Assembly (NCBI GenBank): GCA_043825215.1
Contig: JBDRSD010000063.1
Span: forward strand, 1-55,754
Length of the DNA: 55,754 nt
Source: Nanobdellota archaeon
GTDB taxonomy: Archaea > Nanobdellota > Nanobdellia > Woesearchaeales > JAHJEM01
Direction: 5' to 3'
Under the pieces are notes generated by a model. It saw only the letters and a list, made by a program, of their open reading frames with translations. It had not been told where the DNA came from and ran no database searches. The stretch's first letter is position 1. Each line of letters begins with the position of its first letter. Of the stretch, positions 732 through 16,934 are shown piece by piece. Position numbers and translations under genes: made by a program.

Positions 732-1696
732 GTGAACAACCCCGCAATCTTATCCATTTCAGGATTCCCGTGCTTTGGCCTGTCCTCATCAGAATCATCT
801 TCTGTATCGTCAGGCCCTTCATGATCACCTTTCTCGTCATCGTCCTTTCCCCCATCATCTTTCTTGCCATCTTTCTTCTGCTCTTCCTTGTCAAATTCCC
901 GAAGCTTCTGGGACAAGCGACCAATATTGATCCCCTGAAAGAGCTCTGCAAGGTCATGATTCGTCTTCATCAGTTCCTTGATCTTCTCCGGAGTCTCAAT
1001 AAGCATCTGTTTGAGCCGAGGATTTCCCATGATCACCTTGGCCAGGTTATCCTTTGCCTCTTCAGGAGCAGGCGGTAGAGGTTCTGGAGGCAGCGGCGGC
1101 AATTCGTCCATTGGCTGAACAGGAGCAGGCATTCCTTGAGGAGGACGCAATCCTGGGACTTGAACTGTCGGAGGTACCTGCGGCTTTGCCTCACCCACCA
1201 ACTTTCCCTCACGCTGCAAATAATTCCTCATGACAGCACCAACATTTGTGCGAAGCGCAGGAGTGAGCTTTGCCACTTCTTCCCGAGGCACCTTGCCCTT
1301 GGGAATCGGAAAGTCAACACCCTCATTCGGGATGATATGAAAGAGAAAATGCGGACTCTGCTGGCCAGCAACAGCGCCATTCGCAATAAAGACCGTCACC
1401 TGCGGTGCGACCATGCCCTTCTTCACCGCCGCGACAAGGTACTTGGTCGTCCGAAACAAGTGCTTGAACACATCCGGAGGAATCACCGGAAGGATGGGAT
1501 AATGCTCCTTAGGCATGACCAAGGTATGCCCCTTTGCCGCAGGATTGATATCAAGAATGGCAAGCATCTTCTCATCCTCATAGACCTTCCGTGACGGGAT
1601 CTCACCCTTCACGATCTTGCAGAAGATGCAATTCTCCTTCTGCAGGCGGGAAACTTCATCAGGAGACATATTCTGCAGCTCTTCTTCCGAAACCAT
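728..1696 (-). CDS. HIT-family protein with Pro-rich linker, helical domain and acidic tail
   Basis: CIFCKIVKGEIP, DINPAAKGHTLVMPKEH, QQSPHFLFH; overlaps next gene by 4 nt. Confidence 0.85.
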   Translation of the reverse strand: MVSEEELQNMSPDEVSRLQKENCIFCKIVKGEIPSRKVYEDEKMLAILDINPAAKGHTLVMPKEHYPILPVIPPDVFKHLFRTTKYLVAAVKKGMVAPQVTVFIANGAVAGQQSPHFLFHIIPNEGVDFPIPKGKVPREEVAKLTPALRTNVGAVMRNYLQREGKLVGEAKPQVPPTVQVPGLRPPQGMPAPVQPMDELPPLPPEPLPPAPEEAKDNLAKVIMGNPRLKQMLIETPEKIKELMKTNHDLAELFQGINIGRLSQKLREFDKEEQKKDGKKDDGGKDDDEKGDHEGPDDTEDDSDEDRPKHGNPEMDKIAGLFT

Positions 1697-1781
1697 AGAG
1701 CACCTTTGTGGCTAGAGGATATTTAAATGTTACCCTTAAGAGAAGATACGATAGGTTCCATACCAATATCTTGGAAGAGGG

Positions 1782-1800
1782 GATGAGTCCGACTGGATTT
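1782..1800 (-). repeat. decayed copy of tRNA-Lys(CTT) 3' end (distal att remnant)
   Basis: gatgagtccgactggattt matches 15176-15194 at 18/19. Confidence 0.75.
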
Positions 1801-1818
1801 TTTGCCCTGGAAAAATCC

Positions 1819-2412
1819 TTAGAAGTACCCTTCCTGTATTGTCGCATCCACATCGTGGTATTTTAATATAGGCAAAATATCGTTTTTACGTTCGACAGGA
1901 ACCATGATTGTGCTTTTCCCCAATTTCCTTCCTTCAAGCTTCTCAAGAAGCCCCTGATACTTCTTGTCATTCGCTCGAAATCCATATATCTTGTTGAGGA
2001 ATGCGCCTCTGTTTGTGCCAATGCGACTCCAGGAGATGACTGCATATTTTCTGCCTTCGATCCTTCCACCAACATAGGGACCATAGAGAACAATCCCGCT
2101 TGCTTCAATGCTTTGCTTGAGGTCATTCCACTCTTCAAGCTTTCCTACGATGGCATTGATCTTGTTGTCAACTCCTTTTGCCTTGAATATGAGCGCGTCT
2201 CTGCTCTTATAGAATGATTCAATAGCATCTTCGATTTCCTTCTGAATTTTTTTTGTCGCAGAATGAACATCGAAAAATATATCGATGTCGCTGTCTTTCT
2301 TTGCCTCTCCTTTGGCAGCAGAACCGAACAGGATGATGCACCTGACATTTTTCATATTCTGATGAGCAGCCAGGTACCATGAGACAAAGGTGCTCGTGTA
2401 TGCCTTATACAT
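1819..2412 (-). CDS. minimal nucleotidyltransferase (MNT) domain protein with C-terminal extension
   Basis: ILFGSAAKGEAKKDSDIDIF Pol-beta superfamily motif. Confidence 0.85.
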   Translation of the reverse strand: MYKAYTSTFVSWYLAAHQNMKNVRCIILFGSAAKGEAKKDSDIDIFFDVHSATKKIQKEIEDAIESFYKSRDALIFKAKGVDNKINAIVGKLEEWNDLKQSIEASGIVLYGPYVGGRIEGRKYAVISWSRIGTNRGAFLNKIYGFRANDKKYQGLLEKLEGRKLGKSTIMVPVERKNDILPILKYHDVDATIQEGYF

Positions 2413-2815
2413 TTTTCACCTTCTTCTTCAATTCGAGAAAGCAGTCAATTTTCTCTTGGATCGTTTTTTCAGAAACACCTTTCCCATATGCCATGTCATT
2501 ACTGTCCTTTTCGATCAGGTATGCGGAATCAAGAAGGGGATCGATCTCGGGAAGTGATTCGATTGATGCAGTTATCCTTTGCGCAATGAGTAGCTTTGCA
2601 TTTTCTTTCTTCTTTTTCAGCCAGCGATGATCTATCTTCTCGCCTTGCTTAAGCACAGATTTCTTCTTGAGATATTCTTCGAGGAGGGCAACTGTTCCTA
2701 AGGAGAGCAGGAATGCGAGGCGGCGCTGATGAACGATAATGCCTTGGGAATCCTTGAGAGCGCTTTCTATCTCGTCCATCACTTCCTTCATGAGCCCATC
2801 GAATGCTGATGCCAT
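2405..2815 (-). CDS. putative HEPN-like partner of the MNT
   Basis: helical 136 aa ORF overlapping the MNT; SNDMAYG at the usual Rx4-6H/Y position. Confidence 0.5.
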   Translation of the reverse strand: MASAFDGLMKEVMDEIESALKDSQGIIVHQRRLAFLLSLGTVALLEEYLKKKSVLKQGEKIDHRWLKKKKENAKLLIAQRITASIESLPEIDPLLDSAYLIEKDSNDMAYGKGVSEKTIQEKIDCFLELKKKVKNV

Positions 2816-2818
2816 GTC

Positions 2819-2914
2819 GAGACACCTGTCTTGAAGTAATTAAGACACCTGTCTTTAAAAAGATTATGTTTTATGTTAAGATGGATGTCTTAAAATCATT
2901 AAGGCAAGTGTCTT
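2819..2914. promoter_or_regulatory. four palindromic operator-like boxes over the promoter of the 2815 operon
   Basis: AAGACA-nn-TGTCTT-like boxes at 2819, 2842, 2878 and 2901 (spacing 23/36/23), flanking a tttaaa TATA at about 2854. Confidence 0.7.
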
Positions 2915-2950
2915 AATAGAGAATTACGACCATGTCGTTTGTCGTCGGTG

Positions 2951-2986
2951 GTTTGTCGTTCATCGTGGTTCGGACGGGACGGTTCA
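2951..2986 (+). repeat. 36-bp direct repeat, copy 1
   Basis: 34/36 identical to 3739-3774; 24-bp core tcgtggttcggacgggacggttca is identical. Confidence 0.9.
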
Positions 2987-3026
2987 GACGTGTTTCATTT
3001 TGTTCCATCTTATGACTCCCTCACCT

Positions 3027-3296
3027 TTATATTATGTATTCTTCAATCTCTTTCAACTTCTTGATATTCAGTTGATACGCATCTCCGTGTTTGGTTTTTC
3101 CATAGAATAAGACCAACTCTTCCTTGATGAGATCTTCCAAGACCTCTTTCACATATCCTTGAAGGTGGCCTGGAATGCTCGAGTGCAATCTTTCAAAAAG
3201 AAGATGACCTTTACTGAATGCCTGCTTCGCATATAACTTCTTGAGAATGTTCTTCTTAATGCGAAAATAATCGGCTTTACTAATCTTCCCAGACAT
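3027..3296 (-). CDS. small winged-helix-like hypothetical protein
   Basis: 89 aa; VKEVLEDLIKEELV..GKTKHGDAYQLN helix-wing pattern; TATA (tttataa) about 25 nt upstream. Confidence 0.6.
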   Translation of the reverse strand: MSGKISKADYFRIKKNILKKLYAKQAFSKGHLLFERLHSSIPGHLQGYVKEVLEDLIKEELVLFYGKTKHGDAYQLNIKKLKEIEEYII

Positions 3297-3408
3297 CCAG
3301 TTTGGTGTGAAGTCGAGTTTTATAAGCTTTATTCAATTCATTCATATTTATGGCTCTTATTGGCTAGAAATAGAAAGTTTTAAATATGTTGACAGCACCA
3401 CCTAGGTC

Positions 3409-3735
3409 ATGGAAAACAAAACAGCATTTTTGGAGATATTCGGCGATTCACCTGTATTGAGAGCATTAGATTTCTTGATAGTCAATGAAGATTTTGACTA
3501 TAGTATGACTGACATAGCCAATCTATCTGGAGTCGGCTATTCCACGCTCAAATTGTTCTGGAACAGATTGGAAAGGGAAAGGATAGTCATCAACACGAGA
3601 ACAGTAGGTAAGGCAAAGATGTATAAGCTCAACACAATAAACCCTGTCATCAAGAAATTCAGGGAGTTCTACTGGGAGACAACCAAGCAGCATACGCACA
3701 ACAAATTAAAGGAACAGATCTTGGTGGAATCATAA
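3409..3735 (+). CDS. winged-helix transcription regulator
   Basis: YSMTDIANLSGVGYSTL HTH and TRTVGKAKMYKLN wing. Confidence 0.8.
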   Translation: MENKTAFLEIFGDSPVLRALDFLIVNEDFDYSMTDIANLSGVGYSTLKLFWNRLERERIVINTRTVGKAKMYKLNTINPVIKKFREFYWETTKQHTHNKLKEQILVES

Positions 3736-3738
3736 GGC

Positions 3739-3774
3739 GTTTGTCGTTAGTCGTGGTTCGGACGGGACGGTTCA
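3739..3774 (+). repeat. 36-bp direct repeat, copy 2
   Basis: matches 2951-2986. Confidence 0.9.
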
Positions 3775-3846
3775 AGTCGTCATTAGTTCTTCGTTTGTGG
3801 TTCATTGTTCCTTCATCCCGTTCTATCTTCGACTCCGTCAATCAAT

Positions 3847-4416
3847 TTATTCAACAACTTGCAATACTGATTTTTGCATGCATGATGAAGAAACTTTTTT
3901 AATGGATTCCAACAAGAGATTCCCGTATTCTGGAGCAATCTCTATCAAACCAGGCTTGAGGAGTTTTCCACCATATTTTCTCAGAAGACCATACTCTCCC
4001 TTCTTGCCATTCAACATATAATTAAACTTGATCTTGTCCCTTTTTTCAAGATTCTCAAGAGTATAAAATATTTGAACAACTGGAATGAAACCAAATAATT
4101 CTGCTAAATATTTTCCATGAATAATGCTTCTTCCACACAAAAGGATATTTTCTTTGGCAAAATTCGATCTGTCAAAAAGTGAATAATAATCATAAGAAGA
4201 GATATGGATCGCTATACTTGTCAATTTCTCAATCTGCTTTTTAATCTGCTGGGATTGTTGTAATTGCTCCTTGAGAGGGATTTTGAAGAAGATAACTGCA
4301 ACATCGATATCATTGGGATTTGAATTCTCCATGACTGAAGAGCCGAACTGGACTATGTCAATAACATCTTTACTATAGATTAACTTTGGTTTTGTTTGCC
4401 ATAGTTTTTGCGTCAT
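3847..4416 (-). CDS. MNT nucleotidyltransferase domain protein
   Basis: QFGSSVMENSNPNDIDVAV motif; C-terminal domain similar to the 1819 gene. Confidence 0.8.
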   Translation of the reverse strand: MTQKLWQTKPKLIYSKDVIDIVQFGSSVMENSNPNDIDVAVIFFKIPLKEQLQQSQQIKKQIEKLTSIAIHISSYDYYSLFDRSNFAKENILLCGRSIIHGKYLAELFGFIPVVQIFYTLENLEKRDKIKFNYMLNGKKGEYGLLRKYGGKLLKPGLIEIAPEYGNLLLESIKKVSSSCMQKSVLQVVE

Positions 4417-4735
4417 CTTTAATCACCTCTGTCAAATCCTTGCCCAATATCTGGACATAGCTGTTTTGATAGAACGGAAAATCCTTATCCAAGATATCAT
4501 AGACATCGGGGAATTTATTTCGTAAAATACGAAATCTATTCGTGTGGGAAGATGGTGTATCGCCGGTTTTCTCTAATATGTAAAGGTCTATCAATGCGAC
4601 CAATGACTTAAAATAGAGCACAAGCGCAGAGTTGTATCTCTCTTTTTTCAACTCATCTTCTCCCGCGTCAAAATACTCTTTTGCTGTTTTCTTCAGAATT
4701 GAAGCTTTTGGATGCTCTTGCTTTTGATCATTCAT
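4373..4735 (-). CDS. HEPN-domain protein
   Basis: AKEYFDAGEDELKKERYNSALVLYFKSL..PSSHT HEPN-like helices; adjacent to MNT. Confidence 0.7.
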   Translation of the reverse strand: MNDQKQEHPKASILKKTAKEYFDAGEDELKKERYNSALVLYFKSLVALIDLYILEKTGDTPSSHTNRFRILRNKFPDVYDILDKDFPFYQNSYVQILGKDLTEVIKDDAKTMANKTKVNL

Positions 4736-4827
4736 ACCTGGTAAGAAAGACCAACTACTATTTAAACCTTTTCTTACTTGGTAAGAATTTTATTGAATTA
4801 TTTCTCATTTTTCGAACCAGGTAAGAA
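4731..4827. promoter_or_regulatory. three 17-bp imperfect palindromes spaced exactly 40 bp
   Basis: ttcatacctggtaagaa (4731), ttcttacttggtaagaa (4771), ttcgaaccaggtaagaa (4811); they cover the start codon and flank the TATA box. Confidence 0.7.
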
Positions 4828-4945
4828 AAACTGCAAAACGAAGAATCAAATACTGTCAACGATGAATGACAGATGAGACCGGCTGGATTGCAGCCTTTCG
4901 AAGCTAGCTAAGCGATACCCGGCAGGATTCTCACTTGCGGTTCAA

Positions 4946-5077
4946 TCACACGAAAAAACTGAGTCCGACGGGAAAAGGAGGTGAACCCTGCGGCACTGAC
5001 GACGATAAACTTTCATTAGTAGAAATTGTCGTTTTCGTTTCTGAACCCGTACTATTGAACCTATTTGAGTTTGTCAT
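4946..5077 (-). CDS. Int(N): N-terminal fragment of the split integrase (43 aa as integrated)
   Basis: GGAGGT RBS then ATG at 5077; reads MTNSNRFNSTGSETKTTISTNESLSSSVPQGSPPF-PVGL, crossing the att core in the same frame as the PVGL of the integrase ORF. Confidence 0.75.
   Translation of the reverse strand: MTNSNRFNSTGSETKTTISTNESLSSSVPQGSPPFPVGLSFFV
4997..5049 (+). repeat. putative integrase arm-type sites, left end
   Basis: tgacgacgataaa (4997-5009) and ctgaacccg (5041-5049) recur at 15146-15158 and 15115-15123. Confidence 0.65.
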
Positions 5078-5160
5078 GGTGTGAACCTCCTTCGATATTG
5101 TTCATATTATGAATAATAGATATATTTTTAAATGTTGCGGTAAACAGTCCAGTTGAAAGG

Positions 5161-5535
5161 GTGAAAACAATCGTACTCCCTCCAAGAAAGATATACAAGT
5201 TCAGCCATAGCATTGGACAAGGTGGATTTCTCTATTCTCATAAGATACAGATAGGAAGAATTCAGAACAAGGATGGTTTGAGAAATATGCTTCAGGCAGT
5301 GGGGAAGCAATTCAAGCTCATTGATGTGACGGTAAAGATTTATGACGACATCTTCTTTTTTTTCTTCCTGTTTCATACTGCGAGACCTGTTGACTTGATA
5401 AACAAGTTGCAGGAACATCTTCATGAATATGGAGAGTTCACATCAGACTATCTGTATACGACAGTGTATGACCTTCAGGAAGAATACTTGCGAAAAGACT
5501 TGAAGGAATATGGATTTGACTATGATAAAGGATAA
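5161..5535 (+). CDS. IS200/IS605 TnpA (Y1 HUH)-like protein lacking catalytic residues
   Basis: pattern SHSI..LR.ML..IYDDIFF..PVDLINKL..YLYTTV..EEYLRKDL parallels TnpA, but HUH and the catalytic Tyr are replaced. Confidence 0.5.
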   Translation: MKTIVLPPRKIYKFSHSIGQGGFLYSHKIQIGRIQNKDGLRNMLQAVGKQFKLIDVTVKIYDDIFFFFFLFHTARPVDLINKLQEHLHEYGEFTSDYLYTTVYDLQEEYLRKDLKEYGFDYDKG

Positions 5536-5929
5536 GCTAGAATTAAGGAGAGCATTCATTGGGCGATGGCGTATTGTCAAGATGAGTGAGTGGGATAAGG
5601 ATTTTGTCGATGAGGATGTGAAAGCGTACCTGCTCATTGAAAAGAATGGTTCTGGAGAATTTAGGTTTGGTTACGTATCTGGAGATGATGTTCATGGGGA
5701 ATTCAAGCAGCAAGGAAGGGATATTATTTTTGATTTCACTTGGGATGGGAGTGATGAGTGTGACCACGTATTTGGTGATGGCTGGATGAAACTGACTACA
5801 TCAACAACTGCAGAAGGTGAATTGCGATTTCATGGAGGAGAAAAGTCACACTTCTGGGTTAAGAAGTTGAATGAACGAAGACAAGAAGGAACGTCTAATA
5901 AAAAACAGAGAGGGACTCGGAAAAGATGA
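5510..5929 (+). CDS. hypothetical beta-rich protein
   Basis: GRWRIVKMSEWD..GEFRFG..FTWDGSDECD..FHGGE; overlaps both neighbours. Confidence 0.65.
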   Translation: MDLTMIKDKLELRRAFIGRWRIVKMSEWDKDFVDEDVKAYLLIEKNGSGEFRFGYVSGDDVHGEFKQQGRDIIFDFTWDGSDECDHVFGDGWMKLTTSTTAEGELRFHGGEKSHFWVKKLNERRQEGTSNKKQRGTRKR

Positions 5930-6654
5930 GGACAGAACAATTGGATGTGAACGGTACGAAGTATCTTGTCACGATTCATTACGAACAGAGGAACGGTTCC
6001 AGAGTATCCATTGGAAAGAAAGGAATTAACATTCGTGTTCCGTTAGGGATGAGCAGGGACGAGCAAAGCAGGGAAGTACTCAAGATGAAAATTTGGGCAA
6101 GAGAGCAACTTCTGAAGAAACCTGAAAAGTTCAAGAAAGAGCCAGCAAAGGAATATCATGACGGTGACGTGTTGACTATTGGAAATGATGAATATCATCT
6201 TCACATTGATTTCAAGGAGAAGCAGAGCAGTTCTGCAAGGAGAAGTGATAAAGACATCTACCTTTTCATCTCATCATCTCTTTCAAAGGAAAGACAGAAT
6301 GAGCACGTCTCTACTCTGCTCAGCAGAGTGGTTGCCAGAAAAAGGATAGACGAACTCAAAGGTAAGATTTCAGAGTTGAATGACAAGCATTTCCACCAGA
6401 AGCTCAACAAAATATTCTTCAAATACAATTCATCAAACTGGGGAAGCTGCTCAATCAATGGCAATATCAACATTTCCACACGGCTCCTTTTTGCTCCAGA
6501 GGATGTGCTGGAATACGTCTGCATACATGAGCTTGCTCATCTCATCGAGCATAATCATTCTGACAGATTCTGGAAATTAGTGAAAGATGCAATGCCGAAT
6601 TACAATGAAAAAAAGCAATGGCTAAAGGAACATGGGCAAACCTGCACATTTTAA
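5926..6654 (+). CDS. YgjP/DUF45-like (M48-type) zinc metallopeptidase
   Basis: WGSCS..NINIS.RL and YVCIHELAHLIEHNHSDRFW motifs. Confidence 0.9.
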   Translation: MRTEQLDVNGTKYLVTIHYEQRNGSRVSIGKKGINIRVPLGMSRDEQSREVLKMKIWAREQLLKKPEKFKKEPAKEYHDGDVLTIGNDEYHLHIDFKEKQSSSARRSDKDIYLFISSSLSKERQNEHVSTLLSRVVARKRIDELKGKISELNDKHFHQKLNKIFFKYNSSNWGSCSINGNINISTRLLFAPEDVLEYVCIHELAHLIEHNHSDRFWKLVKDAMPNYNEKKQWLKEHGQTCTF

Positions 6655-8233
6655 GAGAACGAAGAAAAACGATAAGGAAGGAAGCCAACAGACCAAGCTC
6701 TTCCTCTTCCGTGACAAACCAGTAGAATACACTATTGCAGACGATTTTGTGAGACACCCATATCTCAAAGAGAATAAAATAATCGCCAAGCAATACCAGC
6801 TCGACATTGCCAAGAATTGCATCCATGAGAACACTGCAGTCATCCTTCCTACTGGACTTGGCAAGACTATTATTGCATTCCTTGTTATCGCTGAGGTGCT
6901 TTCGAAGAAAATACTCTTTCTTGCTCCGACAAAGCCTTTGGTTATGCAGCATTTTGAGAGCTGCAAGAAGTTCCTTGCTATTGATGAGTCAAGGATTGTC
7001 CTTCTTTCTGGGAGCATTCCTGCAAAGAAGCGAAGGGATATCTTCATGGAGGCAACGGTCGTTATTTCCACTCCTCAGACGATAAAGAATGACCTTGAGA
7101 AAAAAAGGTACACGCTCACTGATTTCGGTCTTGTCATCTTTGACGAACTGCATAAGGCAGTAGAAGAGTATGCTTACGTTGAGATTGCCAAACAGTATAA
7201 AGGATTGATTCTAGGACTCACTGCATCACCTGGAGCAAAGAAGAAAAAAATCCAGAAGATATTTGACAACCTCAAGATAAAGAACATCGAAAGCAGGATA
7301 CGGGAAGACATTGACGTGAAGGAGCACATCAAGGACATTGACATTGCATGGGAGAAGACACCACTTGATGAAGAGCTGAAGAAGATACGAGCACCAGTGC
7401 AATCACTCTTCCTTGAGAAGCTGGAAAAGCTCAACAAGGTAGGCATTCTCACCTACAAGAAACCGCAATACCTCACCAAAAAAGACATCCTTGGAGCAAG
7501 GATGGCAATCATCAAGCGATTCTCAAGGACACCTTACGCATTCCACATACACAACAGCCATTCAGTAGTCCTGCAGACATATCACTGCCTTGAGCTTCTT
7601 GACACACAAGGAGCAGAACCATTCCTCAAATACCTTATGAAATTCAAGGAAAAGAAGAAACTGTCAAAGTCAGAGCAGATGTTCATTAATCACGAGTCAT
7701 TGCAGAAAGCAAGAGAACTGGCAGAAAAGAAGAAGGGATTATCGCATCCGAAACTAGCACTGCTAAAAAGAATGGTTGAAGAGCAATTCAAAGAAGAACA
7801 AGATTCTCTCGTTCTCATTTTTACACAATTCAGGGACACCATAGACTCGATAGAAGCAACACTCAAGAACATTCCTGGAGCGAAGATTCATCGTTTTATC
7901 GGACAGGCAAAGAAGGGAAAAGAGAAGGGCATGAATCAGAAGGAACAAAAAGAAATCATCGACAAATTCAAGAATCGGGAAATCAACATCCTCATAGCAA
8001 CATCAGTCGCTGAAGAAGGAATCGACATCCCTAATGTGAATCTCGTCATCTTCTATGAACCAATTCCTTCCGAAATTAGGGGAATACAACGGAAGGGAAG
8101 AACAGGAAGAAGCCACCTCGGAAAAGTCATTATCCTCATTGCAGAAGGAACAAAAGACGAAGCGTACTTCCATGTGGAAAGATACAAGGAAAGCAAGATG
8201 CAAGACATCATCGGAAAAATGAAACACAGGTGA
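6632..8233 (+). CDS. Hef/FANCM/Mph1-like SF2 helicase without nuclease domain
   Basis: LPTGLGKT, APTKPLV.QH, DELH, TASPG, TSVAEEGIDIP, QRKGRTGR; ends right after the helicase core. Confidence 0.9.
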   Translation: MGKPAHFKRTKKNDKEGSQQTKLFLFRDKPVEYTIADDFVRHPYLKENKIIAKQYQLDIAKNCIHENTAVILPTGLGKTIIAFLVIAEVLSKKILFLAPTKPLVMQHFESCKKFLAIDESRIVLLSGSIPAKKRRDIFMEATVVISTPQTIKNDLEKKRYTLTDFGLVIFDELHKAVEEYAYVEIAKQYKGLILGLTASPGAKKKKIQKIFDNLKIKNIESRIREDIDVKEHIKDIDIAWEKTPLDEELKKIRAPVQSLFLEKLEKLNKVGILTYKKPQYLTKKDILGARMAIIKRFSRTPYAFHIHNSHSVVLQTYHCLELLDTQGAEPFLKYLMKFKEKKKLSKSEQMFINHESLQKARELAEKKKGLSHPKLALLKRMVEEQFKEEQDSLVLIFTQFRDTIDSIEATLKNIPGAKIHRFIGQAKKGKEKGMNQKEQKEIIDKFKNREINILIATSVAEEGIDIPNVNLVIFYEPIPSEIRGIQRKGRTGRSHLGKVIILIAEGTKDEAYFHVERYKESKMQDIIGKMKHR

Positions 8234-8239
8234 ACAATC

Positions 8240-8380
8240 ATGGCAAAAAAAACAGTATCATTTACGGTAGAAGAAGAGGTAGTTGAGAAGTTCAACCGAC
8301 ACTGCGATGAGAATAGCATCAATAAGTCGAACTTGGTAGAGAAGATGATTAAGCGGTTCTTGGAAGAAAAGAAGAGGTAG
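8240..8380 (+). CDS. ribbon-helix-helix (CopG-like) protein, 46 aa
   Basis: MAKKTVSFTVEEEVVEKFNRHCDENSINKSNLVEKMIKRFLEEKKR; aggtga RBS; not in the ORF track. Confidence 0.75.
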   Translation: MAKKTVSFTVEEEVVEKFNRHCDENSINKSNLVEKMIKRFLEEKKR

Positions 8381-8856
8381 AACGACTCTTGTTATTAGCT
8401 GGTGGAGAAATCTTGGCAATTTTTGGTATGTGTTTATACGACTTCCAGTGGCAGGATATGGAGGTTATAGACCAGCATCGAAAATGAAGGGGATAAAATA
8501 TTTCTACTCGACTTTATCAAAAATATTAAATTCATTGCTGGAAATCGAGCAAAATCTTGCATTGTTAGCCTGACGTGAATATGATTTCCAAAAACAAAAA
8601 AAGTACTCAAGTTTGGCAATAACTTTATTAATAGATGTTCACACTTGACTATTGGTGATACCTTTGGAAAATACCGAAATAAAAAAGAAAGCCCTATGTA
8701 CGAAGGGATACTCTCCAAAGCAATCGATAGTCTCAAGGGAAGGATACAACCCCGAAACCTCGATTCAAGCAAGAAATGCTGGCTTACCACAAACAGACCA
8801 GACACCGCAAACTCCACCAAAAAACGTGAAGAAGGACATAAGCAACAAGTAATCCG

Positions 8857-9276
8857 ATGGCTCTCGAAATTTGGATATCTGCGGTTGGAACGTTTTTTGC
8901 AGGAATTGGACTTTTTCTCAATTGGCATGCAATAAGAGAAGAAAATAAAACAAGGACAGCTCAGATATTTATCGATTCATTCGAAAGGATAATTAAAGTC
9001 GAAAAATCACTGTACACTGATTTCGATATAAAGTCAGTAAACCAGAAAAAAGAATGGGATAGCCTTTTGTTTAATTCTATTGAATTATTCGCAATCATGG
9101 TTAATACCAAAATGATTAAAGATAAACCCATGAGAACTTTTTTCGATGATGCAATAGTTCGATGGTATGAAGAGATTTTTTTAAAATTCCACGAAGATGA
9201 GGTTAATGAAGGAAAGATGTATCCTGAATTTAAAAAATTATACCACTCCATAAAAAGTGAGCAACTAAAAAAATGA
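8857..9276 (+). CDS. hypothetical protein with N-terminal membrane anchor
   Basis: hydrophobic N-terminus followed by a helical domain. Confidence 0.65.
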   Translation: MALEIWISAVGTFFAGIGLFLNWHAIREENKTRTAQIFIDSFERIIKVEKSLYTDFDIKSVNQKKEWDSLLFNSIELFAIMVNTKMIKDKPMRTFFDDAIVRWYEEIFLKFHEDEVNEGKMYPEFKKLYHSIKSEQLKK

Positions 9277-9302
9277 GCAAGTGACTTCGGAGGTATTTCA
9301 AC

Positions 9303-9449
9303 ATGAGACGGTTTAAGAATGGTGCAACTCATATAAGACCTCAGGAACCTGTAATCATATCTGGATTATGTCCTGTGTGCCAAAGAGCAAAGCCGACACA
9401 TGAAGATGGTCTATGCGACTATTGCCATCTTAAGAGATTTACACATTAA
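9303..9449 (+). CDS. zinc-finger microprotein, 48 aa
   Basis: ggaggt RBS; CPVC...CDYC; not in the ORF track. Confidence 0.55.
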   Translation: MRRFKNGATHIRPQEPVIISGLCPVCQRAKPTHEDGLCDYCHLKRFTH

Positions 9450-9528
9450 TTTTTTGCTCATTTTGTTGGGAATGCAAGTATATTTACCTTTCCCGTCCCT
9501 TGGGGCGGTTGGGTAATTGATTTAAAGT

Positions 9529-9798
9529 TCACAATTCCATTTTCTTCTCAACCTTCTTGCCAAGACTTGTTTTTTGGTAGATGCGTCCAGTCTTCTCGTT
9601 TGGATTGATGGTTTCCACTAGACCTTTTTCTTTCAGCTCCTTGAGTGCTCTGGATACAAGGTTGAAGTAGGTGTTGCTTGATTTACCGTACATTTTCTTT
9701 GTCACTTCTGATGGCATCATTGGCTTGTCAAGGGCTTTGAATATTTGCAGTCGATTCTTACCCCTCCTGACATAACCCACTAGTTCCAACAAGTTCAT
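9529..9798 (-). CDS. winged-helix regulator (ArsR/MarR-like)
   Basis: PMMPSEVTK..VSRALKELKEKGLVE..GRIYQKTSLG. Confidence 0.85.
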   Translation of the reverse strand: MNLLELVGYVRRGKNRLQIFKALDKPMMPSEVTKKMYGKSSNTYFNLVSRALKELKEKGLVETINPNEKTGRIYQKTSLGKKVEKKMEL

Positions 9799-9943
9799 AG
9801 CAATTTATAAACGAATTGAGTTTAAGAAGCAAATTCAACAATCTATTAGCAAATTACCAACAAAAAACCGAAAAATATAAATAGGATGTCACGAAAAAAG
9901 GAAGTAAGTCAATAGTTAGAAAAAATAAATTGGGGGGAAATAT

Positions 9944-10279
9944 ATGGCAAGAACTACTGAGTTTGTTCTAGGGTTGATTGGAGGAATCGTTGGATTCATC
10001 GGAGCAATAATCGCCATGTTTGTCGGAGGTCTTGGCGGTGCATTTGGAGCGAAAGGAGCATCAACCATTGTAACGCTTGGTTGGGTTGCCATCCTATTTG
10101 CAATTATTGGAATAGTTGGAGCTGCTCTTGTAAAATCAAAGACAAAACTTGGCGGTTGGTTCATGCTTGTCAGTGCAATAGGTGGTTTGATAGCAGTCAG
10201 CTTTGCCTATGCACTTGCGTTCGTTCTTCTCCTCATTGCAGGTCTTATGGCTGTACTGAAGAAGGGGGATAAAAAATGA
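9944..10279 (+). CDS. small multi-pass membrane protein (DUF4064-like)
   Basis: RTTEFVLGLIGGIVG start; 3-4 hydrophobic helices. Confidence 0.75.
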   Translation: MARTTEFVLGLIGGIVGFIGAIIAMFVGGLGGAFGAKGASTIVTLGWVAILFAIIGIVGAALVKSKTKLGGWFMLVSAIGGLIAVSFAYALAFVLLLIAGLMAVLKKGDKK

Positions 10280-10830
10280 GAATGCAATATGCCTTTCTTT
10301 TTTTTGTCCTTTTTTTCAGCATAGCATTATACGGATGTACATCCGAACAAGGAACAACAGCGAGCACGAAAGATGATGCTCAAGTGGACAAAAAAAGCAA
10401 TGAACAGGTTCAAAGCGCAATACTTTCAACTGCTCGAAAAGCAGAAGTCATGGATGTTGCAAAAAACTGGGATGAAGACTTGGCTGATGATGGTCTAATA
10501 ATATATCCAGAATTGAGGGACGAAAATGACAGCACTGTCGAGTTTGAAGGAGTAACCCTAAAAGTGGATATGGAAATCTGGACAACAAAACTTAACGATA
10601 ATTTTAAGGAAGTAAAAATCAGAAAAATCTACAGCGGTTCAGGGACAATCGATAACTGGAGAGATGGTAACTTCATGTATGATGGCGGCATAAAAATTCC
10701 ATTCGAAGACATTAAAGCTGTAGAATCGGATAGCGACCATGGATTATTGCTTATCAAAATATACGCCAATAATAAGACTTACGAAGCTAAAAGCACAATG
10801 GGTGTAAGAATAAAACCTGAAGCAGAATAA
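10276..10830 (+). CDS. putative lipoprotein
   Basis: signal peptide ending in LYGC. Confidence 0.7.
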   Translation: MRMQYAFLFFVLFFSIALYGCTSEQGTTASTKDDAQVDKKSNEQVQSAILSTARKAEVMDVAKNWDEDLADDGLIIYPELRDENDSTVEFEGVTLKVDMEIWTTKLNDNFKEVKIRKIYSGSGTIDNWRDGNFMYDGGIKIPFEDIKAVESDSDHGLLLIKIYANNKTYEAKSTMGVRIKPEAE

Positions 10831-10853
10831 ATTAATGAAACGAGGAACGAAAA

Positions 10854-11543
10854 ATGAACTCAAAATATTTTGTCATAATCTTTCTTGGTCTTGCGTTTGT
10901 ATTTCTTTCAGCTTGTTCATCTCAAACTGTTTACAAATTTCAATGTTCTGACGGTACGTTCGTCGACACTGCCAGTAAATGCTCTTTAGCAAACGTTGCC
11001 GAACTCTCCAATGAACCAATTAACTGTTCAGCTTGTCCCGTAAAAACAGAAACGAAAGTTGAAACAAACACGGTAACAGAGAAGATTTATGTCTGCTCAG
11101 ATATGCGGGAAGTAAAGACTGCAAACGACTGCAAAAGCACCGAACAAAAAGCAATAGAATCTTCAAGCGATAATCTTGTCCTAACTATTAATAGTGCACG
11201 TACTGCAAGAGCCATCGGAGACTATTCAATGGAAACTCTTAAGTCGGATGAACAATATGTAATAGTCGATTTCACTATCTACAACAAGGAACTTGAAGAT
11301 GGATACGAATTCAATCCCAACTGGGTACTCCTTGAAGATAGCAAGGGGTATAGTTACAGCTATTCGTGGAACAGTCCAAATTTACCAAAATATTGGGGAG
11401 GAATGGCTGGCGTAACTGTTGAATATCAACAGAAAAAGAGCGGAGAATTAGCTTTTGTTGTGCCTAAGACTGAAAAGAAGTTTACATTAATTGTTAAAGA
11501 CTTTACTGGAGTAAATGGCAAAAAAACATTTACACTAACTTAA
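10854..11543 (+). CDS. lipoprotein with Cys motifs and DUF4352-like Ig domain
   Basis: LSAC lipobox; CSDG..C; YVIVDFTIYN..LEDSKGYSY..SGELAFVVPK. Confidence 0.75.
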   Translation: MNSKYFVIIFLGLAFVFLSACSSQTVYKFQCSDGTFVDTASKCSLANVAELSNEPINCSACPVKTETKVETNTVTEKIYVCSDMREVKTANDCKSTEQKAIESSSDNLVLTINSARTARAIGDYSMETLKSDEQYVIVDFTIYNKELEDGYEFNPNWVLLEDSKGYSYSYSWNSPNLPKYWGGMAGVTVEYQQKKSGELAFVVPKTEKKFTLIVKDFTGVNGKKTFTLT

Positions 11544-11562
11544 CGAAAATAGAAAGGAAACC

Positions 11563-11955
11563 ATGAAAAAGTGCTCACAATGCGGAAAAGAACTGAAAGC
11601 ATTTGAATCAAAAGAGAAATTTAAGGACAATACTTTCATGTGCAAGATTTGTTTTGAGAGTTGGAAAAAAGACCAATCCCACGAACAAGAAGCATCAAGA
11701 AAAGACAACATCAGTAAAGCATTGCAGAAAAATTCACAATGGGAATATCGACTAATAACAGTCGAGACAGATAGAAGCAGCTTTGTTGCATCGAACGTTA
11801 AGCTTACGAAAGTCGAGGATACCCTGAATAAACTAGGTGAAGAAGGCTGGGAGCTAGTGGCTGCAATAGGACTTCAAGCTATCTCTGCTGGATTAAGCGT
11901 TCATTCACCAGGAACTACCACTAACGTATCCTTTGTTTTCAAACGAAAGGTGTAG
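11563..11955 (+). CDS. zinc ribbon plus DUF4177-like domain protein
   Basis: CSQC..CKIC; WEYR..LNKLGEEGWELV..FVFKR. Confidence 0.8.
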   Translation: MKKCSQCGKELKAFESKEKFKDNTFMCKICFESWKKDQSHEQEASRKDNISKALQKNSQWEYRLITVETDRSSFVASNVKLTKVEDTLNKLGEEGWELVAAIGLQAISAGLSVHSPGTTTNVSFVFKRKV

Positions 11956-12695
11956 CCAAACGTATTTTTTTATCCATAACCGACAGCGAAGCTGGCGGAC
12001 AATAACAGGGTGGGTGGGGTGGGATTCAATATCATCACACCCGTTCTCCATCAGACCTTTACCTTTTGGTCTTCTTTGTATAACTTTGCTGGTGGACATT
12101 GTTTTTCAGAGAGGGGTTGCTTCTGTAACGTGATGCTCATTTTCACATTTCGTTTTGTTTTATGGAATACAAATTCTTGATTGTCTACTGGAACTTTGTC
12201 AGGGTAACAAAATTCAATTATACCGTGGTAATCAGGGAAGTTCAGGGTATTCCCGTCTTCAATTACATAATCCCAAATTCAACAATGCCAATTACAATTA
12301 CACAGTTTCTCCTGGAATAACAATATTGAAATTGAACAGCATCTAACGTCTGCAAAATATAGTTCTACCTACAGAAATCTATTAATAGTCGAGCATCTAG
12401 TCTGAATGAAATCCGTTTTGTTATTTTTGGTCATCGACGATAAACCAGTTTTTTTACATTTAAATCAAGTGCACAACAATGCATTGCAATCATCGATTGC
12501 TTCCACTTCTCCACTCTTAATTAACATTCTTGTTACACTTTTTTATGGCAACATTGCTAAAAATATCGATACATTTGAGTGTATATTGTTTGATTGTTTC
12601 CACTATTCATTGTTTGATTCTTTGAGTGGAGCAATGGTTGAGTGTTGATAATCGATGCAAACTAGCTAAAGCAATGGAACCATGGAGGAAGGAAG

Positions 12696-14039
12696 ATGAC
12701 GCAAACAAGTGAACTACAATATGAATATGGGTTTTATACCCCCTGGCTGAATATGCAAGACTTTCCAAAGGAACTGGAAATTGTCAGAAGAAAGTTTCCA
12801 ATGGAAGATGAAGAAGTACAATTCAATCTGGTAATGTTTGCAGTGAACCTAGAGTCTGGAGCAAAGGCAGTATCTCGGAGTGCAGGTTGGTTTGCTGATA
12901 AAAATCCAAGCGGAATCCATTGGCACACCTATCAAGCTTCTAAACGAGCTCAAAAAGTTCTGGAATGTGGTAAATACATTACGATAGAATTGGGACAACG
13001 CTCAGAACATAAATCATCGATTCTTCATCCTTTGCCTGATTTTTATGAACTCTTTGGGAATACAGCGGTTATCGAAGGACGACACATCGATGTAAGCACG
13101 AATCCAAATGCAATCATCCACTATAACAAGAAGAGAAAAGGAGAGAAATATCTTCCGTTAAGTGCAACTGAACATGATATTCGAATTCGTCAACTAACCA
13201 AACCATATCAGTATAGACAAGGAGACATCATTAATATCATCCCTGCAACCAGATATGACTTAGCCATAAGACAAGTATTGAGGGAAATGAGGGAACTCAA
13301 TGAAAAATATTTTTCTCAAATCGAACTTGGCTTCAGGATAAAAGAATACAATGGCGTGATAGCTACGAAGGTTAAGCTGACAAGGGTGCTGAGTGCGTAT
13401 GATGATGGAGTGTGTGGTGGTGGACGACTCTATCAGCGGAAGGCATCGTCATATCAAGATATTCCTTCGGATGAGCGGAATTTTATGACAATCAATGGAC
13501 AATCCACTGCAGAGGTCGATATTTCATCGATGCATTTGATATTACCTTATGCTCGGGTGGAGCATCAACCAGAAGGTGATTTGTATAATCCGATTTCTCA
13601 GGAGTTATTCGGAGAAATTAATCAACAGTATAGGGATGTTGTGAAAGAGCCATCCATCATCCTTTTGAATTGTACGGATAAAGACCAATTCCAAGGAGCA
13701 ATCGAGAAATATGATAAAAATAAGCATGCTGTCTGTGAGAATTATAAAGTTCTTATGGAGCACAAGATAACGGGAAGAAAATTCATTCAGGCATTCAGAA
13801 AGGTTCATCCCAGATTAGAGCGTTTTATTCTCTCTGGAATTGGGCTTGATTTGCAGTATGACGATAGCTGCATAATGGTAAACATTCTGTTTCGTCTGTT
13901 TGAAGAAGGGATTCTTGCTCTACCCCTTCATGATTCAATTATCTGTCAAGTGGGGATGGAGCAGAGAGTAAAACAAATCATTGAGGAAGAGTTCCACAGG
14001 TACACTGGATTTTATTGTAGAACAAAAATTGAGCGTTAA
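12696..14039 (+). CDS. family A DNA polymerase / T7 RNA polymerase-like palm-domain protein (putative replication protein)
   Basis: GGRLY, motif A-like TAEVDISSMHL, motif B-like RDVVK, motif C-like LPLHDSII; ggagg RBS. Confidence 0.7.
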   Translation: MTQTSELQYEYGFYTPWLNMQDFPKELEIVRRKFPMEDEEVQFNLVMFAVNLESGAKAVSRSAGWFADKNPSGIHWHTYQASKRAQKVLECGKYITIELGQRSEHKSSILHPLPDFYELFGNTAVIEGRHIDVSTNPNAIIHYNKKRKGEKYLPLSATEHDIRIRQLTKPYQYRQGDIINIIPATRYDLAIRQVLREMRELNEKYFSQIELGFRIKEYNGVIATKVKLTRVLSAYDDGVCGGGRLYQRKASSYQDIPSDERNFMTINGQSTAEVDISSMHLILPYARVEHQPEGDLYNPISQELFGEINQQYRDVVKEPSIILLNCTDKDQFQGAIEKYDKNKHAVCENYKVLMEHKITGRKFIQAFRKVHPRLERFILSGIGLDLQYDDSCIMVNILFRLFEEGILALPLHDSIICQVGMEQRVKQIIEEEFHRYTGFYCRTKIER

Positions 14040-14245
14040 GAATTTTGTAATCTTTTTTGTAATGTTTTTTTTTATTCTGTTTTTTGTTATTATTTTTTAT
14101 GATTTCTCTTTCTTTTCTTTCTTATTTTTCTCCTTTTTGTTAGTGGCGGAAGACACACACGCCGCCACTTATCATTACAGAGCAGTTCATATAACTTGTT
14201 CCACCCAATCAAAAACCCATCAGAGCATTATCTGTTCCACCCTCT
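14040..14245 (+). other. candidate replication origin or terminator region of the element
   Basis: ~100 nt T-rich tract, GC hairpin agtggcgg/ccgccact (14142-14169), two cagagca...tgttccaccc repeats. Confidence 0.45.
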
Positions 14246-14287
14246 AACTATTGGAGCAATTCTTGCTCTCCCTCTCTTACCAACCAA

Positions 14288-15191
14288 TCATCGTATTATC
14301 TGCCACAGCTGAGCTAGCTTCTTCATATCCTCCTTTTCTCTCATGTCGTCTTTAAGGTTCTTCTCGAATACCTTATCCATTGACATATCCAAATCATTCT
14401 GAGAGGAATGGATGTATACTTGCGTACTTTTTATTGACGTATGTCTAGCTAACTTCTGAGCCACTATGGGGTCTTTTGTTCCCTTGTAAACTCTTGTTAT
14501 GAAATAGTGTCGGAGTGAATGCGTTGTCAGTCGGTAGAGCTTCCTGCTTTGTTTAACATAGCTTTCCTCGCTACGTCCATAATTCTCATTCATTCCTGAC
14601 AATACACAGACGTCCCTGAACGTATTTCTAAGCCAATGTGGACTAATATGTTCTTCCCTATTCCAATCACTCTCTGAGTAGAGAATGTGTCCAGAATGGG
14701 CTTGTATTGCGTTTAGGTGCAAGTCTACCCACGTCTTAAGAGGTTGATATATTTCGTCGTGAAGATAGAGGGTATCACCTGTTCTTGCTTTCTCAGTCAA
14801 TACATGGATTTTCCTTCTGGGGAAGTCGATATCATCCAATCGAATCTTGACTACTTCACCCACTCTCAACCCAAGATTAGCCATTAACCGATAAGCCATA
14901 TTTGCCTTGGGATTCAGGCAATAGGAAAGGAACGTCCTCAGTTCTTCATCAGTGAATCCCTTGTTAATATTCCCGTACTTCGGATTCTTCGGTTTCTTGA
15001 ACTTCTTTCTCATCATTTCCTGTACTGCTCCTTGTATTTCTTCAAGCCGATGTTTTGGTAGCATCCCTAAGAATTCCTTGCTAATCAAATATTGGAAGTT
15101 TTCGTACCCTGTACCTGAACCCGAATCTGTTAAAGAAATCTCATTTGACGACGATAAAACTGCGTGAGGGGAACAGATGAGTCCGACGGGA
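14288..15191 (-). CDS. tyrosine integrase, Int(C) fragment (internal Met at 15064)
   Basis: GLRVGE, TEKAR, HSLRH, ARH, TQVY catalytic residues; frame open up to and through the att core. Confidence 0.93.
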
Positions 15192-15295
15192 TTTGAACCC
15201 GCGGCCACTCGATTACTTCAACCGAAGGGCGAAGGATTGACGACGCCAGTCGGCAATAAGAGTCGAGTGCTCTAACCAGGCTGAGCTACGGACCC
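15178..15295 (-). tRNA. tRNA-Lys(CTT), 43-nt intron at 37/38 (15214-15256)
   Basis: GGGTCCG/CGGACTC acceptor stem, CTCGA anticodon stem, CT-CTT-A|A loop, GTTCAAATC T-loop. Confidence 0.95.
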
Positions 15296-15387
15296 GCTGT
15301 TATGTGTCCTGCAGCAAAGTGTGGTCGAGCGAAGCGAGCGCCGCACGCTTTTCGTCAACCTTTTTTGCAAAAGGTTGGTTGAGTTCG

Positions 15388-15413
15388 CTAACCAGGCTGA
15401 AGCTTTTGGACCC
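15388..15413 (-). repeat. decayed copy of tRNA-Lys(CTT) 5' end, upstream of the gene
   Basis: ctaaccaggctgaagcttttggaccc versus ctaaccaggctgagctacggaccc (15272-15295); TATA tttataaat about 25 nt further upstream. Confidence 0.75.
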
Positions 15414-15447
15414 ATTGTGGCAAAAAACTGCTGGTCATTTATAAATA

Positions 15448-16819
15448 TTACTTAACAAAACGGATAGTGACAGGTGTCTTTGGCCAATGATAAGATGTGC
15501 CGCGATATGTATATCCTTCCGAATGCTCAAGGAGCCCTTTCACCTTTTCCGGAGAGTTGCCGTCAGTAATCATCTGCAACCCTAACCTATACCGCTCAAT
15601 ACCTTTGCGAAACATCATCCTATTCTCATACCTGAACTGTTCCAGAAAAACCAAGTCTGAATCCCGCAAGGGAAACTGGAAATGCGTAGGATTGCCAAAA
15701 TGCAGGCTGTAGAGCGAGTCGATCATCCGAGCGAAAACCTCCATCGGATCCTCCATAATCCCAGAAGTTCCGTTAATCCCGCTCTCGTACTCAATATCTG
15801 CTCTGAATGCTGACAATTTCGCAGAACACGAGGAAACACTCCTCCTCATGGAATGCCAGACCGCCCAATCCTCCTGAGCATCTTTAACCTGGATAAACTC
15901 TTTCTTGACAACCTCCAACGGTTCAAGATATCGCACCCAATCATCATCTTCCTCGATTTTTCTCTCCAATCCCCGTATCCTAAGGCCAAAATACTTGTCA
16001 TGTGCCTTTGCATATGCCATCAGGACATCTCCACAGTACAGTTCAATATCCTGAAACACCGACGATCTCCCCACGAGCAACTCGTATTTTGCCGTGAGCA
16101 CTCTTCTCTCCCATGGATTTCCAATTGCTGATGAATCCACAGGCAGCTTTATCTTCATAAACGCATCTTGCAGGCTATCCAGGCTTTTCTGGATATACTT
16201 CCTTCGCCTCTTCAATTCAGACCTATTCTCAACATACCTAACAGACTTTTCATTCTCACGAGCATACTCTCCCATATCATCAAGCATGGTTGTATGATCA
16301 TCATATGCTGTCAAGAGTACCTGTATCAATCTCATCGTCCTCAGGTTCTCCCGGACAACCTGATCAGTCGCATAAAGCCTACGCAAGGAATCAAATTCAG
16401 ACCTTTGGTAAATCGATCCCATCTCGGCACTGATTTCACTAAAAGAAGGTCCCTGGTACCTGCTGGTAAAAATGATTCCCTGCGTCAAAAGAGTATCTGT
16501 CATGACATGGGCAAGTTCGTGATCAACTGCGTCAATGGCCTGCCCATCAAGGACATGTTCCCGTACCGGCAGACTCAATTCATCAGCGACAGGATCATAC
16601 AATCCAAAGGTGTCCACAAAACCAAGACGGTCAGCAAGAGACATCTCCCCCTGTTCCACAATCCTCACCTTTATACCCTGATCCTCAAATGCCGCCGCCA
16701 CCCAACTATCATGCTTTGCAAACTCCGCAACCAAGGGATCAGAAGCATCCTTTTGGCAAGCAGAACATGCCAGCGCTCCACCAAGAAGAACGGGAAGATA
16801 TGATCTCATGCTTTTCATG
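15448..16819 (-). CDS. secreted or lipid-anchored protein with HExxH zincin-like motif
   Basis: LLGGALAC signal, VDHELAH and PMEVFAR; start codon uncertain. Confidence 0.6.
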
Positions 16820-16934
16820 GTATGAAATTGCTCAATCCTTAACAATCTAGAAATCATTTTCAACTTATAAAGTTGGCGGATTTTTGAAAAGATACTGAAC
16901 ATTTAAAAACTTGCAATATTCTCTTCTACCTATT

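Follow-up and report, generated by a model that had tools for sequence, protein, structure and literature searches.

An archaeal tyrosine integrase whose reading frame appears to be split by its own attachment site in a DPANN genome

Introduction

Can an integrating element carry its attachment site (att) inside the reading frame of its own integrase, so that each integration cuts the gene in two? This question is raised by a 55,754-nt stretch of DNA from a Nanobdellota archaeon (assembly GCA_043825215.1, contig JBDRSD010000063.1; hereafter the window, which denotes the whole stretch that was analysed). In the window, a 10.2-kb plasmid-like element adjoins the 3' end of a tRNA-Lys(CTT) gene and carries at its opposite ends what look like two pieces of one tyrosine integrase. 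Our analysis makes it very probable that the att of the free element (attP) lies within the open reading frame (ORF) of the integrase and that the gene is split upon integration. Such self-partitioning had been proposed from the sequence alone (the original prediction), and it is now supported by the window copy, a decayed sister element in the same genome, a tandem relative, and counts across the integrase family.

Results

Boundaries of the element

The 14-nt core TGAGTCCGACGGGA occurs on the plus strand in two exact copies, at 4960-4973 and 15178-15191, where the original prediction had placed the two ends, and in a third copy with one mismatch at 1784-1797; among 100 dinucleotide shuffles, none gave three matches. 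The copy at 15178-15191 is the tRNA-proximal att core and equals the last 14 nt of tRNA-Lys(CTT) (15178-15295, minus strand), namely the 3' half of the T stem, the 3' acceptor strand, and the discriminator, so that this tRNA represents the integration target (attB side). The tRNA gene contains a 43-nt intron at 37/38 and was recognized by Rfam (RF00005, 56.5 bits) and by ARAGORN with introns allowed; a default ARAGORN run, without the intron option, did not detect it. With the distal att core at 4960-4973, the body of the integrated element spans 4974-15177, i.e., 10,218 bp counting one core copy. Its G+C content is 0.36-0.42, as against 0.45-0.49 in the right flank, and outside the 14 bp the element side retains an imperfect T-arm similarity (GGTTCA...CCGC).

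We also looked for an empty site. The right-hand neighbour gene (15448-16902) had no match in 30 relatives, while the left-hand HIT-domain gene has orthologues in the genus, five of which were fetched with their surroundings and showed neither a tRNA nor the core within about 1.5 kb. In G401, a genome of the same genus, the tRNA-Lys(CTT) locus is not syntenic with the window, and no empty site was recovered from it. That locus (L178, contig C79, 50-240) lies at a contig start, and its tRNA has no intron, in contrast to the window copy. About 96 nt after this tRNA stands TCCCGTCGGACTC, which is closer to the window core than to the end of the tRNA of L178 itself and may be the footprint of an earlier visit by such an element.

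One integrase frame in two pieces

On the tRNA side, the integrase ORF (14288-15208, minus strand, 306 aa) reads ...AAGSNPVGLICSPH...HSLRH...TQVY... and matches PF00589 over residues 87-270 (E 8.6e-21; 74.9 bits against a gathering cutoff of 27.1). Its part from the core, read as P-V-G-L, to the stop is Int(C), 300 codons long (14288-15190, minus strand), as supported by the ORF, the PF00589 match, the family alignment, and an AlphaFold2 (AF2) model. On the distal side, an ORF absent from the first listing had been proposed to start at ATG 5077 behind a GGAGGT, and it was indeed recovered in an ORF listing with a 40-aa minimum. This Int(N) ORF (4946-5077, minus strand, 43 aa) consists of the ATG and 34 further element codons, the core as P-V-G-L, four flank codons, and a stop; its translation is MTNSNRFNSTGSETKTTISTNESLSSSVPQGSPPFPVGLSFFV, i.e., MTNSN...SPPFPVGLSFFV up to the stop, and the GGAGGT stands 8 nt upstream of the ATG. 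Its expression signals occupy 5086-5132 (minus strand) and comprise the TATA-like TTTAAAAATA (5123-5132) and GGAGG (5086-5090), conserved with the sister element and more loosely with the tandem relative; in our own reading, they are a putative archaeal TATA box and ribosome-binding site (RBS).

The core is read identically in both ORFs, as x-CCC-GTC-GGA-CTC-A, and thus in the same frame. A scripted join of 5077 to 4960 with 15177 to 14288 yields 1008 nt and 335 codons, beginning with M and containing a single terminal stop, in agreement with the predicted excision product of about 335 aa. Because the same frame runs through both cores and the join restores one 335-aa ORF, attP falls within the integrase reading frame. 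One piece stands at each end of the element, both are read in the same direction, and it is Int(C) that adjoins the target tRNA.

An ordinary explanation should be set against this one, namely that the element integrates into tRNA genes with an intact 258-aa integrase, begun at Met 15064 or a nearby TTG, that attP lies in the 5' untranslated or promoter region, and that the 43-aa ORF is fortuitous. The gene caller did choose this start, the internal ATG at 15062-15064 (minus strand; MLPKH; residue 49 of the 306-aa ORF), for its 258-aa protein P0002. The predicted local distance difference test (pLDDT) score of the model is below 50 before residue 40, and in some family members the protein seems to begin immediately ahead of the LPKH helix. 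On the other side, the predicted helix at residues 44-49 starts upstream of Met49.

Sister element and tandem relative

When the whole genome was searched with the integrase ORF, a second match appeared on contig C76 (genome G000; L002 and L005-L007), covering residues 5-59 only, from the core to the LPKH motif. It belongs to a sister element of about 5.5 kb (about 9935-15839) that has decayed and whose integrase is truncated; the core of this element, TCCCATCGGGCTCA, differs from the window core at two positions and occurs three times (10070, 10315, and 15826). The first copy is the 3' end of a tRNA for which ARAGORN and Rfam both gave no call; read by eye, it appears to be a tRNA-Arg(TCT) with two introns, in the D-loop and the anticodon loop. 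The second leads into a same-frame Int(C) remnant, NNPIGLIRTSSS...FLGILPKHKLEE (NNPIGLI...LPKHKLEE), after which the integrase breaks off and a helicase gene follows with about 85% DNA identity to that of the window. The third is entered by an ORF with AAGGAGG and ATG, reading MAIYNGFKEQGSDTKTE...VVAGSNPIGLRT (...GSNPIGL) up to its stop. The tRNA and the truncated integrase are separated by an additional 245-bp segment, which contains a core copy of its own.

The closest relative of the window integrase (55% identity) is found at L008. Here a tRNA at 853-963 (Rfam) is directly followed by a first Int(C) (tblastn 942-1820, 48.5% identity), and a second integrase lies at 10001-10918, into which an ATG ORF, MGSKQNPQ...VVLGSNPSEP, continues through a core copy. 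At the distal core, 19858, L008 has an Int(N) of its own, MTNNERFTNVGS...KSNPSEP (MTNNERF...), with the same ATG-to-core spacing as in the window. Judged by its sequence, L008 is a tandem array in which the Int(N) of one element is fused via the core to the Int(C) of the next. The fusion is a natural, uninterrupted 326-aa ORF, database protein P0003, so that the halves are seen joined in a naturally occurring ORF, albeit a hybrid one.

Alignment of the three Int(N) sides revealed a common TATA-like TTTA(A/T)AAATA block with CGCAA before it, and ATTATTCATAATAT is common to the window and C76 sides and occurs nowhere else in the genome. The ATG falls in the same column, without a single indel from ATG to core despite low nucleotide identity, and the peptides have recurring motifs such as N-x-F and GS-x-TK. 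Since promoter, start, and length are kept across elements at different tRNAs, a chance ORF is disfavoured; the retention of promoter, RBS, ATG, and spacing in three diverged elements speaks equally against the 258-aa start.

The integrase family

A homology search returned 232 proteins at E ≤1e-3 among 802 candidates, those with names coming from Woesearchaeota, Nanoarchaeia, Micrarchaeota, or "archaeon" records, and many database homologues start with a translated tRNA T-arm (GSNP, RVRIP, GSIP). An alignment of 22 members including the window (A1) is conserved from L..L.KH.L to the C-terminus. Homologues all starting at the MLPKH methionine, with the upstream frame lost in related elements, had been named beforehand as the pattern that would argue against a split gene. 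What we found is the reverse: the column of Met49 holds S, T, D, N, or E in the other 21 homologues and M in none (0/21), and related elements keep the frame across att.

A scan of species-representative genomes gave 265 confirmed relatives, of which 79 loci were kept, most matches being labelled Micrarchaeota, and a metagenome scan gave 177, of which 80 were kept. In the host phylum the family is sporadic, with six of 401 high-quality genomes (the window genome included) matching A1 at E ≤1e-30. A same-strand tRNA lies within 700 nt upstream in 63 of the 79 genome loci, and in 54 of the 79 the tRNA 3' end falls inside the integrase open frame. The distal end was sought as a downstream sequence repeating 12 nt or more of the tRNA end, many contigs ending before the far end is reached. 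Such a repeat was present in 18 of these 54 loci, and an in-phase ATG ORF (at least 8 aa) enters it in 14 of the 18, compared with 4/36 for the other frames. Among the metagenome loci, 41 of 80 abut a tRNA and nine have a distal repeat, entered in phase in 5/9 versus 0/18. For both sets together, 19 of 27 distal cores are entered by an in-phase ATG ORF, compared with 4 of 54 other-frame cases. No distal repeat was seen in L012, L024, L050, L084, L103, and L137, despite about 10 kb of downstream sequence.

The upstream frame was also examined with an open-frame control anchored on the KYG motif. This motif could be located in 151 of 159 loci, and the 142 that are not close to a contig edge were used. 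Upstream of KYG, the integrase frame is open for a median of 97 codons, as opposed to 14 and 9 in the other two frames, and at least 60 codons are open in 134 loci versus 4 and 12 (of 142). The family-wide open frame, the in-phase ORFs at distal cores, and the absence of Met49 from every homologue all count against an intact 258-aa integrase, which we regard as highly improbable. The data directly show the anatomy and the identity of frame in the window, and the retention of this arrangement in relatives at other tRNAs.

Several observations nevertheless weigh against a self-splitting integrase and should be stated together. The annotated form is the 258-aa one (P0002), and Int(N) is short, shows little conservation, and is predicted to be unstructured. 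At eight of the 27 distal repeats, no ATG ORF enters in phase. The loci are mutually related, and at least two pairs (L010/L088 and L025/L112) look duplicated between the genome and metagenome sets, so that the counts do not represent independent events. In nine of the 63 loci with an upstream tRNA, the integrase frame stops short of the tRNA, and some relatives, for example L038, L043, L047, L051, L097, L131/L132, and L154, seem to begin just before the LPKH helix, without a tRNA-like coding stretch; on both grounds, the family is not uniformly split. The sole uninterrupted ORF seen is the tandem hybrid of L008. No free form was encountered in a viral contig collection (15 pattern stretches matched, none a confirmed relative), and no circular copy was seen among the 80 metagenome loci, none of which showed a terminal overlap of at least 15 nt. 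Finally, the exact core measures 14 bp, as compared with the 40-50 bp given for known suicidal integrases in the accessible text of PMC8371274.

Some members deserve separate mention. In the sub-clade of L044, L046, L053, and L075 (Marsarchaeota/Micrarchaeota records), the tRNA is located some 200 nt upstream and is not part of the integrase frame. The 81-nt repeat of L044 spans a T-arm-like stretch together with the integrase ATG and first codons (MKNNQR...), and att in this sub-clade seems to take in the start codon instead of splitting the body. The metagenome loci L145, L148, and L149, with integrases about 31% identical, sit at tRNA-Ser, tRNA-Lys, and tRNA-Gln and have in common a long Int(N) peptide, M(M)KRCYVMKSVQKESGKHGKK...TEDTEHATITP..., before differing cores, i.e., the N part is conserved and the att-coded part varies. 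The integrase contigs L008, L013, L014, L019, L025, L061, and L074 come from bins labelled Bacteroidota, Chloroflexi, Acidoferrum, "bacterium", or Methanosarcinales. These non-DPANN labels are probably binning or record-label errors; L008 and L014 also have intron-bearing tRNAs.

Enzyme class and predicted structure

All 22 A1 members contain PF00589, and in none of them was PF16795, PF07935 (the ORF D-335 domain), or a SAM-like N-terminal domain (PF02899 or PF13495) detected at E up to 10. As a positive control, the SSV1 integrase (SSV1 Int) matched PF16795 (1.5e-61) and PF07935 (2.6e-34). A comparison of the A1 profile with SSV1 Int by hhalign gave a probability of 0.5% (E 0.12). Against the PDB, the profile returned 16 matches, including XerA (5hxy, 5.4e-13; 4a8e, 1e-12), IntI4, Brujita Gp33 (5vfz, 6.9e-09), and XerD; the SSV1 Int chains 3vcf, 4dks, and 3uxu, which are present in the PDB set, were absent from these 16. 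By profile similarity, then, the integrase is an Xer-like PF00589 enzyme outside the SSV1 Int family. In A1, R115, K140, R233, H234, H256, and Y265 are invariant and H230 nearly so; these we take to be the catalytic R...K...HxxR...H...Y residues of tyrosine recombinases.

The AF2 model of the 306-aa ORF has a mean pLDDT of 77.6, with residues 1-40 below 50, helices at 44-49 and 52-70, and the catalytic domain from about residue 87. Foldseek ranked IntI4 (2a3v, 6.8e-09), XerA (2.4e-08), XerH, and Tn1549 Int at the top. In the model of the hybrid P0003, residues 1-60 have pLDDT below 50 and no secondary structure, which is weak evidence of disorder given the shallow alignment there. Taken together, the models suggest that att lies in a low-complexity N-terminal tail that is probably unstructured, and this fits the use by the family of many tRNAs and of all three T-arm frames.

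Int(C) thus retains every predicted folded part, i.e., both N-terminal helices and the catalytic domain, and, as the original prediction had pointed out, it keeps the catalytic residues together with the internal Met at 15064-15062. This gives rise to the thought, raised in the original prediction as a possible switch of isoforms, that the split is real and not suicidal: Int(C) would be translated from Met49 or a TTG, on transcripts that run through from the tRNA gene, and would be active, and integration would swap promoter and N-terminus without inactivating the gene. The predicted removal of an unstructured tail alone is in its favour, as is the position of Int(C) directly behind the tRNA on the same strand with only a run of four T between them. 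A consensus scan showed no terminator-like hairpin, which we gave no weight because the scan was built for bacterial signals (sigma-70/terminator). On the opposite side, we read no RBS-like motif before Met49, 41 of the 142 relatives have no Met upstream of KYG anywhere in the open stretch, and truncated integrases of the SSV/pTN3 families are reported, in the accessible text of PMC8371274, to be unable to recombine, a larger part being removed there. We consider an integrase that stays active after the split to be unlikely.

Gene content, host, and surroundings

Besides the integrase, the element encodes a YgjP-like metallopeptidase-domain protein (5926-6654, plus strand; PF01863, E 2.2e-42), an SF2 helicase (6632-8233, plus strand; DEAD/ResIII and Helicase_C by Pfam, and the copy compared with C76 above), a helix-turn-helix protein, and DUF4064, DUF4352, and DUF4177 proteins. 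A 447-aa protein (12696-14039, plus strand) matches phrog_4756, of unknown function (E 7e-38), and no Pfam family; its neighbours in the protein atlas are named "DNA-directed RNA polymerase family" and "putative DNA polymerase family A". As a lead, it may be a small family-A-polymerase-like protein serving element replication. No capsid or packaging gene was recognized among the element proteins scanned, and for this reason we call the element cryptic and plasmid-like.

The RpoB' protein of the window is 79% identical to a "Nanoarchaeota archaeon" protein, and further top matches are named Woesearchaeota or Nanoarchaeia. By these protein matches, the host belongs to the Nanoarchaeota/Woesearchaeota and is a DPANN archaeon, in line with the DPANN-like host of the original prediction. 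Window DNA was found in runs from groundwater metagenomes: five runs were found, four of them with part of the window and none of these four recorded as RNA. One run contains 0.99 of the sampled words and may be the source of the window DNA. The possibility of an assembly chimera was considered and rejected, with this run at 0.99 and a run from a second study at 0.48.

An ATG ORF at 1659-1853 (minus strand) runs through the degenerate third core (1784-1797, 13/14) in the same phase and translates it as NPVGL, and a weaker core-like word lies at 4872-4890. The intervening 1798-4959 is low in G+C (0.37-0.43) and contains two nucleotidyltransferase-domain genes (1819-2412 and 3847-4416), each overlapped by a small upstream ORF without a Pfam match. 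The third core may be what is left of the distal boundary of an earlier element, now decayed, at 1798-4959 that was displaced outward by the newer insertion. Beyond the element, a 452-aa beta-CASP/metallo-beta-lactamase protein (18391-19749, minus strand) has as its best NCBIfam match "type VII CRISPR-associated Cas14", at 417 bits against a cutoff of 800, with aCPSF1 next; it is probably a ribonuclease of the aCPSF type rather than a Cas protein.

Discussion

How the split would operate

With attP at about codons 36-40 of the integrase frame, we propose the following scenario. In the free circle, a 335-aa protein, presumably the active form, would be expressed from a single promoter, RBS, and ATG; it would be made up of a tail of about 75 unstructured residues, two short helices, and an Xer-like catalytic domain. 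Strand exchange would take place within the 14 identical bp, in the T-stem/acceptor region. Integration would leave the tRNA intact and place the 300-codon body, deprived of promoter and start, immediately behind it, and the promoter with its 35 codons would be stranded 10 kb away, now encoding just a 43-aa peptide. To leave the chromosome, the element would then depend on a full-length integrase supplied in trans by a related newcomer, on a tandem hybrid of the L008 kind, or on Int(C) being expressed at a low level from an internal start.

Whether the present copy can still move is a separate matter. The architecture could be exactly as described in an element that is no longer mobile, its intact frames being left over from a recent insertion. 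The sister element in the same genome is decayed, with its integrase truncated, degenerate cores lie nearby, and no circular form turned up in the viral contig scan or the 80 metagenome loci. Against such a fossil copy stand the identity of the two cores at 14/14 nt, the stop-free state of both integrase pieces, and the intact promoter block; on balance we find it doubtful.

Implications

Accepting that the integrase is split by its own att, we lean slightly towards a broader view, in which the SSV/pTN3/pT26-2 clade is not the only origin of self-splitting integrases: a small Xer-like PF00589 family found across DPANN (Woesearchaeota/Nanoarchaeia, Micrarchaeota, Iainarchaeia) would have evolved them separately. 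Here att would be placed in a disordered tail, integration would act as a disconnection of promoter and start, and tandem arrays would rebuild full-length hybrids. In a disordered tail, any tRNA 3' end could be written into the protein in any frame (GSNP, RVQIP, GFKS) without cost, and hence many tRNAs could serve as targets. Such a family challenges both the single PF16795 origin suggested for the SSV, pTN3-like, and pT26-2-like families, which carry that domain (accessible text of the 2021 review PMC8371274), and the framing of suicidal integrases as a trait of hyperthermophilic and deep-sea archaea (accessible text of the 2020 study PMC7253208). It also offers a simpler system for the paradox of how a self-disrupting element gets out again, as the split would remove just the tail and the expression signals. 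Additionally, gene callers report the genes of this family as truncated (258 aa here) or as read through into the tRNA (P0003, P0004, and others), and DPANN mobile elements are likely under-recognized as a result.

Suicidal integrases are stated to be exclusive to archaea (PMC8371274, in its accessible text), and one thaumarchaeal element with an SSV1-like split integrase has been described (PMC6563490, likewise). DPANN, Woesearchaeota, Micrarchaeota, and the stem Nanoarchae- find no mention in the accessible text of PMC8371274 or PMC7253208, and a paper on DPANN viruses (PMC12647753) uses the word "integrase" once, in its methods. In the literature searched, with subscription journals and supplements outside it, we found no description of a gene-splitting integrase in DPANN or in a PF00589-only family, in keeping with the original prediction, which treated the lineage as one not known to have such an integrase.

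Comparison with known systems

The closest parallel is provided by the type I, or suicidal, integrases of SSV1, pTN3, and pT26-2. According to the accessible texts of PMC8371274 and PMC7253208, these too have attP inside the integrase ORF (in the SSV1 record NC_001338, attP at 1735-1778 within int at 961-1968) and can yield hybrid genes from tandem or mixed elements; upon integration into a tRNA gene, the integrase gene is divided, int(N) ending up at one end of the element and int(C) at the other, and a full-length integrase from a related incoming element is a described exit route (PMC8371274). The likeness to SSV1 and pTN3 drawn in the original prediction thus holds for the architecture and fails for the family, as the window integrase has no PF16795 or PF07935 and no detectable similarity to SSV1 Int: SSV1 Int consists of PF16795 and PF07935, whereas the window family has PF00589 only. 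Furthermore, att lies about 35 codons from the start, in a tail predicted to be unstructured, and Int(C) keeps every predicted folded part, in contrast to SSV1 and pTN3. The hosts differ as well, being DPANN archaea here, that of the window from groundwater metagenomes, and hyperthermophiles for the SSV1/pTN3 type.

The pNOB8-type (type II) integrases are, like the present one, PF00589 tyrosine recombinases of an element that targets the 3' part of a tRNA gene, but their gene is intact after integration (accessible text of PMC8371274), whereas in the window promoter, ATG, and 35 codons lie 10 kb from the body.

XerA, IntI, and XerH-type enzymes (PF00589) are the best sequence and fold matches of the window family, with the catalytic residues conserved. 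Unlike them, the family has no detected SAM-like N-terminal domain and only two helices before the catalytic domain, and, unlike XerA, the window enzyme belongs to a tRNA-abutting mobile element and is not a chromosome dimer resolvase.

In the mycobacteriophages BPs and Brujita, which show integration-dependent immunity, attP interrupts the repressor gene instead of that of the integrase. These phages are bacterial, and their att is not at the 5' end of int. They resemble the present element in having attP inside a phage gene whose product is altered by integration (PMC4557955, in its accessible text), and their integrases are likewise small and simple. As far as our searches reach, then, what is new here is a known splitting trick in a different enzyme family, a different lineage, and a different habitat, with a gentler split.

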